From the sequence record NC_052656.1: DNA of 64,000 nt; one strand, given 5' to 3'. Both the position numbers and the translations under genes were made by a program. This document shows, piece by piece, positions 45,121 to 46,835 of this stretch (positions within the stretch are counted from its first letter, which is position 1; each line of letters starts with the position of its first letter). This stretch comes from Escherichia phage anhysbys. The notes under the pieces are model-generated. The model worked only from the letters and a program-made list of their open reading frames with translations. It made no database searches and was not told the DNA's origin.

Positions 45121-45150
45121 TTGACAACTAACATTATTTTATGTTAGATT
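45121..45150 (+). promoter_or_regulatory. sigma70-like promoter (CTATTGACAA family)
   Basis: TTGACA at 45121-45126, 18-nt spacer, TAGATT. Confidence 0.4.
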
Positions 45151-45158
45151 ATAAGTAT

Positions 45159-45249
45159 GGAAGGGCAAATCGACGTGGCGACGAAAACGGTCTTGAAAAC
45201 CGCCGAGCTTGAAAGAGCCTTGGGAGTTCGACTCTCCCTCCTTCCGCCA
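45159..45249 (+). tRNA. tRNA-Ser (anticodon TGA), class II
   Basis: Acceptor GGAAGGG/TCCTTCC, loop CTTGAAA, long variable arm, T-arm GGGAG-TTCGACT-CTCCC, encoded CCA. Confidence 0.75.
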
Positions 45250-45254
45250 GATTA

Positions 45255-45340
45255 GGTAGATTGGTGAAATGGTAGCCACAACAGTTTGCTAAACTGTAGT
45301 CGGAAACGGCGTGTAGGTTCGAGTCCTACATCTACCGCCA
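45255..45340 (+). tRNA. tRNA-Ser (anticodon GCT), class II
   Basis: Acceptor GGTAGAT/ATCTACC, stem ACAGT/ACTGT with loop TTGCTAA, long variable arm, encoded CCA. Confidence 0.8.
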
Positions 45341-45470: not shown

Positions 45471-45558
45471 GGTGAGTTAATTCCGTAGGGGTAGCGGGGC
45501 AGACTGTAAATCTGTTATCATTGCGATTCGGGTGGTTCGACTCCATCACTCACCACCA
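45471..45558 (+). tRNA. tRNA-Tyr (anticodon GTA), class II
   Basis: Acceptor GGTGAGT/ACTCACC, loop CTGTAAA, long variable arm, T-arm GGTGG-TTCGACT-CCATC, encoded CCA. Confidence 0.75.
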
Positions 45559-45564
45559 AATTAA

Positions 45565-45650
45565 GATGAGTTGGCTGAATGGTTTAAGCGGCGGACTGTT
45601 AATCCGTGTTCGAAAGAACGATATAGGTTCAAATCCTATACTCATCGCCA
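45565..45650 (+). tRNA. class II tRNA with anticodon GTT (Asn-decoding by anticodon, isotype uncertain)
   Basis: Acceptor GATGAGT/ACTCATC, stem GCGGA/TCCGT with loop CTGTTAA, variable-arm hairpin GTTC-GAAA-GAAC, T-arm ATAGG-TTCAAAT-CCTAT, encoded CCA. Confidence 0.6.
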
Positions 45651-45657
45651 GAATTAT

Positions 45658-45734
45658 GGACTTGTAGAGTTAAGGTAAACCCCCAGTCGCCAAGAGGCTT
45701 CTGGAATTGCAGGTATCGAATCCTGCCGAGTCCC
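45658..45734 (+). tRNA. tRNA-like element with non-canonical anticodon arm (possible pseudo-tRNA)
   Basis: 7-bp acceptor GGACTTG/CGAGTCC and T-stem GCAGG/CCTGC with 8-nt loop TATCGAAT, but no standard 5-bp/7-nt anticodon stem-loop; no CCA. Confidence 0.3.
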
Positions 45735-45815: not shown

Positions 45816-46088
45816 ACACAACATTAAGGGCACTGTGATTGATCGTCGTATCCTGTGCACAAGGTCTGTTCGAAAGACAGTGTTCTTAGTATTGTGTTGA
45901 TCACACAAAGAGTCACCTGAAACTTGACCGGAGTAGGGTTGGATGGGGCAAAAGAAGAAGCGGCTCTCCCATCGACAGCAACGAAGAATAATATTTGACT
46001 TTGGTTTTGTATTATTTTAAGTTAGCTTACCGAACGTAGGGCTAGTCACCCAATGGGATACTCGTCACTGTCCCACTCAATAAAACTA

Positions 46089-46811: not shown

Positions 46812-46835
46812 AGCCTCCTTATTGGAGGCTTTTTG
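46812..46835 (+). terminator. intrinsic terminator closing the tRNA cluster
   Basis: AGCCTCC-ttatt-GGAGGCT followed by TTTTT. Confidence 0.7.

Follow-up and report, generated by a model that had tools for sequence, protein, structure and literature searches.

By the standard account, only tRNA-Ser, -Leu, -Tyr, and -Sec have long variable arms in bacteria, where these serve as identity elements, and a long-armed tRNA with the anticodon of another amino acid raises the question of what it carries and why it has the arm. Such a gene lies in the tRNA cluster of an Escherichia phage of the phAPEC8-like group (Phapecoctavirus; phage anhysbys, NC_052656.1), from which a stretch of 64,000 nucleotides was analysed here (the window). 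A previous, sequence-only reading had described a class II tRNA with a GUU anticodon at this place, had asked which amino acid it carries at AAY codons and had suggested that it may be a duplicate of the adjacent tRNA-Tyr.

A tRNA-Asn with an extra hairpin

The gene at 45565–45650 (+) was called by ARAGORN as a tRNA-Asn (gtt) of 86 nt. It scored 62 bits against the Rfam tRNA model RF00005 (gathering score 29), in an alignment that places 12 inserted nucleotides in the variable region, and its minimum-energy fold in RNAfold (−23.7 kcal/mol) is a cloverleaf plus an extra hairpin. The 7-bp acceptor and the D, anticodon, and T arms of a tRNA are all present, together with a canonical 7/5 acceptor/T-stem composition. 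The variable region is that of class II (at least 10 nt with a helix), while the anticodon GUU falls outside the class II isotypes of bacteria (Ser, Leu, Tyr, or Sec). ASO2A, a related phage with 98.1% identity to the window over a 901-base query around the gene, has a homologous gene labelled 'tRNA-Asn-GTT; detected by tRNAscan-SE', and phages Mt1B1_P17, dw-ec, nieznany, and tuntematon match the same 901-base stretch with 99% identity. ARAGORN, Rfam, and the ASO2A annotation agree on the gene; neither another anticodon nor a pseudogene call appeared in ARAGORN, in Rfam, or in the tRNAscan-SE annotation of ASO2A, and no better fold with a different anticodon emerged. This confirms the gene as a genuine asparagine-type tRNA with an extra hairpin arm. 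Its parts and neighbours are given in Table 1. The anticodon arm reads GCGGA-CTGTTAA-TCCGT, the D-stem pairs are 100% paired in the family alignment (see below), with double changes, and in our reading the unpaired GAT that follows the hairpin would correspond to core positions 46–48. The 11-mer TGTTCGAAAGA of the variable-arm hairpin (45607–45617, +) recurs once, 260 nt downstream at 45867–45877 (0.05 expected by chance), this second copy being located in a long imperfect hairpin (45816–45897) 3' of the tRNA-Thr.

Table 1. Features of the tRNA-Asn gene and of its surroundings, in window positions.
Feature	Position	Strand	Evidence or remark
Sequence matching a sigma-70-like promoter, upstream of the tRNA run Ser-Ser-Tyr-Asn-Thr	45121–45150	+	10/12 with TG; consensus match only, such matches being no commoner than in shuffles
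tRNA-Ser (GCU), 86 nt, arm A + GTCG-GAAA-CGGC + GT	45255–45340	+	ARAGORN, Rfam, RNAfold
tRNA-Tyr (GUA), A73, acceptor strand GGTGAGT, 6-nt spacer to the Asn gene	45471–45558	+	Rfam 39 bits; tRNA-Tyr-GTA in ASO2A
tRNA-Asn, complete gene, anticodon GUU, CCA encoded	45565–45650	+	ARAGORN, Rfam, RNAfold
Acceptor 5' strand GATGAGT, pairing with ACTCATC (45640–45646)	45565–45571	+	7/7 pairs; G1-C72, A2-U71
D arm, 3-bp stem GCT/AGC, G13 and A22 unpaired, GG in the loop	45574–45589	+	Fold, family alignment
G26 and anticodon stem-loop, GGCGGACTGTTAATCCGT, GTT at 45598–45600	45590–45607	+	Sequence compared with E. coli tRNA-Asn
Variable region, 15 nt, GTTC-GAAA-GAAC (45608–45619) and unpaired GAT (45620–45622)	45608–45622	+	Fold, covariation
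T arm, ATAGG-TTCAAAT-CCTAT	45623–45639	+	Rfam, RNAfold, family alignment
Discriminator G73 (45647) and CCA (45648–45650)	45647–45650	+	Sequence
Terminator-like hairpin and T-run, after the last cluster tRNA	46812–46830	+	Rho-independent terminator annotated at the equivalent ASO2A site

The phage cluster comprises 12 tRNAs, all of them reading A/U-ending codons, and according to ARAGORN this is the only tRNA-Asn among them. The window has 38.5% GC and uses 51.6 Asn codons per 1000, compared with ~39 per 1000 in E. coli. The high demand for Asn codons, the A/U-ending cluster, and the place between consensus-like promoters and a terminator fit a role in tRNA supply. The neighbouring tRNA-Tyr was missed by ARAGORN and has an odd D arm, appearing in one related record as 'tRNA-Pseudo-GTA/tRNA-OTHER'; it is clearly homologous to the tRNA-Tyr of T5, variable region TCATTGCGA included. 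ARAGORN also missed a tRNA at 45159–45248 (+), for which the best Rfam match was the selenocysteine tRNA model (37 bits, threshold 47); its anticodon loop reads CTTGAAA, and in relatives it is listed as tRNA-Ser-TGA. In the spacer between tRNA-Asn and tRNA-Thr, the segment 45658–45733 (+) has a tRNA-like fold (z = −2.0) in which a 7-bp stem resembles an acceptor (GGACUUG/CGAGUCC) and GCAGG-UAUCGAAU-CCUGC resembles a T arm, with a further arm at the centre. ARAGORN made no tRNA call in this spacer and Rfam gave nothing credible; the fold recalls the 'tRNA-like stable RNAs' annotated in phage T5.

Distribution of the long-armed form

A BLAST search of phage genomes with the 86-nt gene returned 714 records, and some of the matches in unrelated phage groups run ungapped across the variable arm. 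A tRNA-Asn(gtt) of 85–86 nt was found in an Epseptimavirus (a T5 relative), in Salmonella phage PVP-SE1 (Seunavirus, Vequintavirinae), and in Citrobacter phage Merlin (Moonvirus, a T4 relative), and each of these copies has G73 and a hairpin with a differing stem sequence and a GNRA loop. T5 itself was considered as a classical carrier and discarded, its tRNA-Asn being ordinary (78 nt) and the long form occurring in other genera of the Demerecviridae, which may be why the classical literature has not flagged the feature. BLAST gave no host homolog of the 86-nt gene, the 18-nt identity to the host tRNA-Asn (see below) being too short for this program.

The family was gathered from IMG/VR with a pattern restricted to GUU tRNAs with a long arm, and at least 120 viral contigs were obtained; as the pattern fixes the anticodon arm, conservation of its loop and stem within the set is by construction. 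Among the matches listed, ARAGORN found 121 GUU tRNAs of 82–91 nt, 89 of them distinct, with variable regions of 13–20 nt (most commonly 15). In a sample of GUU anticodon arms from viruses that was essentially free of bias, roughly 10% were long forms, and these are located within multi-tRNA clusters. Cellular genomes are a different matter: across 185,579 bacterial and archaeal species, with one genome each, the pattern matched 37 stretches, of which ~20 are true long tRNA-Asn, mostly located in short MAG contigs or where tRNA genes are densely arrayed, with up to 36 of them in 8 kb. It is evident that the long-armed tRNA-Asn is a large and conserved family, almost exclusively viral, and the comparison with homologs that the sequence-only reading had called for shows the same design in other phage groups, with an arm that covaries.

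Examples of the dense cellular arrays are found in Micromonospora/Verrucosispora (L238, L239, L243, and L267) and Methyloprofundus (L269), with 23–36 tRNAs in 8 kb, the long-armed tRNA-Asn included; these may be tRNA arrays of mobile elements or prophages. Matches in Saprospiraceae turned out to be false positives, ARAGORN finding only class I genes at those loci, and the one in Azoarcus sp. L1K30 (L270, 114–200) was set apart from the hairpin family as an 11-nt tandem duplication that looks like a recent mutation.

At 13 viral loci (L010, L039, L041, L043, L053, L066, L071, L110, and others) two tRNA-Asn with identical anticodons occur together, one of normal length and one long-armed. In the 11 pairs compared their core identity was 42–63%, which means that they are not recent duplicates, and the sequences hint that the two forms are non-redundant.

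Covariation in the extra helix

Alignment of 29 diverse long Asn homologs with RNAalifold recovered the cloverleaf and the extra helix. The inner three pairs of the variable arm are paired in 97–100% of the homologs and show double substitutions with pairing kept in 18/29 (pair 1), 18/29 (pair 2), and 7/29 (pair 3), while the outer pair is present in 18/29 and doubly substituted in 2/29. Overall, 95% of the cells are paired versus 64% in shuffles, and the covariation score observed was reached by none of 500 shuffles, the signal collapsing when the partners are slid. All acceptor pairs and all helices covary across the family. The extra arm is under selection.

Amino acid identity

In bacteria, asparagine identity resides in the anticodon and G73, and can be transplanted with them into tRNA-Lys (Giegé and Eriani, 2023, PMC9976931). 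The window tRNA has GUU in a CUGUUAA loop and G73, a discriminator found in 88/91 long Asn tRNAs among the matches listed, and its G26 and anticodon arm are identical to those of E. coli tRNA-Asn, a host sequence that is 100% conserved in 5425 genomes. It departs from an ordinary tRNA-Asn in its 15-nt variable region with a 4-bp helix, where class I has a loop of 4–5 nt, and in its first pair, G1-C72 instead of U1-A72. The U1-A72 pair is typical of bacterial tRNA-Asn and is an element for GatCAB; to our knowledge, the AsnRS of E. coli does not use it as a determinant. The family at large has U-A as first pair in 56/91 members (among the matches listed), similar to short tRNA-Asn, and its whole 1-72/2-71 spectrum mirrors that of the ordinary short form (UA/CG, UA/GC, GC/GC).

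An isotype classifier built from position-specific phage profiles with the anticodon masked (79% leave-one-out accuracy) assigned 64/91 of the long Asn tRNAs, among the matches listed, to Asn. The window copy gave low scores throughout (Cys +8, Ser +2, Asn −4, and Tyr −7 bits), without a clear affinity for any isotype. In other long-armed phage tRNAs from the same loci the discriminator is the one proper to the isotype (U73 in Cys and Gly, G73 in Trp, and A73 in Ile), and Ala, His, and Tyr identities are known to work on armed tRNAs in E. coli (PMC7590224). Taken together, the sequences favour the long arm of phage tRNA-Asn being an identity-neutral addition to a tRNA that would be charged with asparagine.

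The gene is probably a functional, phage-encoded supplementary tRNA-Asn that is charged by the host AsnRS and whose hairpin does not redefine its identity. It would be transcribed within the phage tRNA operon, the host AsnRS would read GUU and G73 and most likely charge it with asparagine, and the charged tRNA would decode AAC and AAU, in an AT-rich phage that appears to use Asn codons more than its host does. The Tyr-like geometry of the arm and the absence of the Ser acceptor signature (see below) should exclude SerRS, and G73, listed as an antideterminant for LeuRS and TyrRS (PMC9976931), would block these two enzymes. The GNRA-capped hairpin would be kept by selection without any redefinition of the amino acid.

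AsnRS is a class IIb synthetase and approaches the tRNA from the side of the variable loop, as in AspRS–tRNA complexes, and a protruding arm could hinder it. No armed tRNA is known to us as a natural substrate of class IIb synthetases, and if our reading is true this would be the first such case that we know. It raises the questions of whether a class IIb enzyme accepts an armed tRNA, how SerRS is kept away from an armed tRNA with G73, and why the arm is retained almost exclusively in phages and tRNA arrays.

Possible reasons for the arm

One tentative explanation for the arm is counter-defence. By making the phage tRNA-Asn structurally unlike that of the host, it might allow escape from host factors that target tRNAs; a Tyr-shaped and GNRA-capped hairpin could have been selected to evade host nucleases or other factors, or to titrate nucleases that grip variable arms, and could have been reused on tRNAs for Ile(UAU), Thr, Cys, and Trp. 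Of the possible reasons this is the one that we favour, as a plausible guess that is less likely than not to be right. No nuclease known to us attacks tRNA-Asn by way of the variable region. The tRNA-Tyr of T5 provides a precedent, as it resists retron-Eco7 through differences in its variable loop (PMC13096335), and Septu also cleaves tRNA-Tyr in its variable loop (PMC11555353, PMC13096335). The T5 case resembles ours in having a variable region unlike that of the host within a phage tRNA cluster, although there a class II tRNA stays class II, and by analogy the function may only be proposed for phage tRNA-Asn. Near the tRNA cluster, the opposite strand has genes for a metallophosphatase and for an RNA ligase of the Rnl1 type (ASO2A, L273 1–1051; ~5–6 kb upstream of the cluster in window terms), and these genes of tRNA-repair type suggest that the lineage faces tRNA-cleaving defences. 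This pair of genes, the T5 tRNA-Tyr precedent, and the 13 loci with both normal and long tRNA-Asn point towards counter-defence. If true, tRNA-based evasion of immunity would here follow a structural route, different from the one already known through the anticodon loop, and protection by the arm against tRNA-cleaving defences would extend the picture of phage tRNAs as counter-defence. Alternatively, the GNRA-capped helix may stabilise AU-rich phage tRNAs.

Relation to tRNA-Tyr and tRNA-Ser

The geometry of the arms was compared among phage tRNAs from the same loci. Ser arms have stems of 4–7 bp with 0–1 unpaired 3' nt, Leu arms 3–5 bp with about 1, Tyr arms 3–4 bp with about 3, and long Asn arms 3–4 bp with 3–4. 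With 4 bp and 3 unpaired nucleotides, the arm of the window tRNA has the Tyr-type geometry and not the Ser type (longer stem and 0–1, rarely 2, unpaired 3' nt), and the window tRNA-Ser(GCU) itself has 4 bp and 2.

The match to the phage tRNA-Tyr arm is one reason to consider that a copy of a class II tRNA-Tyr became an Asn acceptor by A36U and A73G, with the arm as an inherited relic. GUA and GUU differ by one base and asparagine identity needs just the anticodon and G73; moreover, the genes are 6 nt apart in the window and, as the sequence-only reading had pointed out, their acceptor strands nearly match (GATGAGT and GGTGAGT, one difference, 6/7). We nevertheless find a Tyr origin unlikely, and the suggestion of a Tyr-derived duplicate lost ground on several sides. 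The body of the window tRNA scores −7 bits with the Tyr profile, full-length alignment scores tie between Tyr and Ser(GCU), and the D and T arms differ. The acceptor match could not be upheld as a sign of Tyr origin either, since the acceptor similarity is missing from 65 other phage pairs of long tRNA-Asn and tRNA-Tyr, which share 2.5/7 positions on average versus 2.2 with any other tRNA; none of these pairs reached 6/7, so that the match of the window is peculiar to its lineage. The A73 and GUA (U35, A36) of tRNA-Tyr, A73 being present in 68/70 phage Tyr tRNAs, are replaced by G73 and GUU, and both the 1-72/2-71 spectrum and the profile of the family are Asn-like. GNRA loops cap 56/80 long Asn arms versus 4/51 Tyr arms, and the Ser and Leu arms of phages commonly have them as well. 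Finally, some long copies have short Asn relatives at 82–85% core identity. One such comparison (L031 and L176) shows identical acceptor stems and a near-identical T arm, the essential difference being the hairpin, and the sequences suggest that hairpins may be gained or lost within Asn lineages. A deep Tyr ancestry through A36U and A73G is possible.

The question of which amino acid is carried proved to be a legitimate one, because G73 and the long arm overlap the determinants of SerRS as GUU and G73 constitute those of AsnRS (PMC9976931). SerRS ignores the anticodon and relies mainly on the long arm and G73, and it might serylate the tRNA, giving it a serine or a dual identity, so that some reading of AAY codons as Ser would take place in infected cells. 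An arm of equal length with the same GAAA loop is present on the tRNA-Ser(GCU) of the phage (4 bp + GAAA, one nucleotide apart in register), and geometry alone would leave room for some recognition by SerRS. G73 is common to Asn and Ser identities and does not discriminate between them. Beyond the arm and G73, Ser identity involves features of the acceptor stem, and in E. coli G1-C72 and G2-C71 are absolutely conserved (PMC9976931). This combination occurs in 87% of the phage tRNA-Ser, the window tRNA-Ser(GCU) also having G2-C71, but only in 21% of the long Asn and 14% of the short Asn tRNAs; the window tRNA-Asn has A2-U71, and its G1-C72/A2-U71 combination was found in 1/117 phage tRNA-Ser versus 7/91 long Asn (among the matches listed). 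Although the 21% with both pairs could be taken in favour of serylation, the acceptor signature is Asn-like. SerRS is also very sensitive to geometry, a single bulge in the arm abolishing charging in E. coli (PMC7590224), and the arms of the family are Tyr-type, with short stems and 3–4 unpaired 3' nucleotides. Other armed isotypes retain discriminators different from G, and a proteome-wide Asn-to-Ser error is unlikely to have been kept over 89 divergent sequences and many phage families. We consider serine insertion or a dual identity quite improbable.

Least probable of all is a non-translating element (a decoy, a sponge, a tRNA-like RNA, or a decaying pseudogene), for which one could invoke the predictor-rejected tRNA-like element within the cluster (45658–45733), the stable tRNA-like RNAs of unassigned function encoded by T5, and the 13 phage loci with both forms, but which disagrees with the intact and covarying helices, the canonical T-loop and GG of the D-loop, the encoded CCA, the high Rfam score, the position as sole Asn tRNA of the cluster, and the discriminator and anticodon loop kept family-wide.

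Comparison with known systems

Full-text literature searches, worded in several ways, turned up no account of a tRNA-Asn with a long arm. The PARIS paper has no mention of Asn, the Azam and Sf14 papers mention phage tRNA-Asn but not the long arm, and in databases the long-armed gene is labelled as plain tRNA-Asn. The closest molecule by identity is E. coli tRNA-Asn (asnT/U/V/W), which has the same GUU, CUGUUAA loop, G73, and G26 plus anticodon arm, and an acceptor spectrum equal to that of the family. It differs from the phage tRNA in the variable region (a loop of 5 nt, AUGUC, against 15 nt with a helix in the phage), in the D stem (4 bp against 3 bp), and in the first pair (U1-A72 against G1-C72).

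As concepts, the nematode nev-tRNAs and the allo-tRNAs are the closest. The former, as reported (PMC3333845), are class II tRNAs with a long arm and Gly or Ile anticodons and pose the same question of decoding versus charging; they are eukaryotic and decode an alternative code for leucine, so they appear to be Leu-type bodies with a changed anticodon. Allo-tRNAs (PMC7609411, PMC7590224) are likewise long-armed, bacterial or metagenomic, and have non-Ser anticodons, but they have an 8/4 or 9/3 composition, long D stems, and strong SerRS identity, unlike the phage tRNA, which is neither 8/4 nor 9/3 and has no Ser acceptor signature. Body and anticodon thus disagree in both of these systems, while in phage tRNA-Asn the identity features agree with the anticodon and the arm is the oddity. 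Engineered tRNAs with aptamer tags or variable arms (PMC7590224) show that synthetases other than SerRS can charge armed tRNAs, that the E. coli ribosome can use these, and that SerRS is excluded by small changes of geometry; the engineered tRNAs are synthetic, with an allo-tRNA as chassis, and the synthetases tested there did not include AsnRS. What distinguishes the phage case is an arm conserved on an Asn tRNA, and less commonly on tRNAs for Ile, Thr, Cys, and Trp, across many phage families, well-studied coliphage groups included, and long-armed phage tRNAs could supply natural scaffolds for orthogonal tRNA engineering.

Other unusual phage tRNAs

Long arms were also seen on other phage tRNAs from the same collection of loci (L004–L234): in 17/26 distinct Ile(UAU), 10/65 Thr(UGU), 8/61 Cys, and 6/62 Trp tRNAs, and in a few of those for Gly, Glu, Met, Asp, Pro, and Gln. 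Many of these non-Ser/Leu/Tyr arms are GAAA-capped, and all of the tRNAs keep the discriminator of their isotype. The long-armed Ile(UAU) is as striking as the Asn form. In PVP-SE1, an 86-nt annotated tRNA-Lys (L002, 2854–2939) with a normal CTTTTAA loop has a GAC-GCAA-GTC hairpin inserted in the D-loop region; ARAGORN reports it as tRNA-??? with a 4-nt anticodon, and its GNRA-capped insertion is in a different arm from that of the tRNA-Asn.
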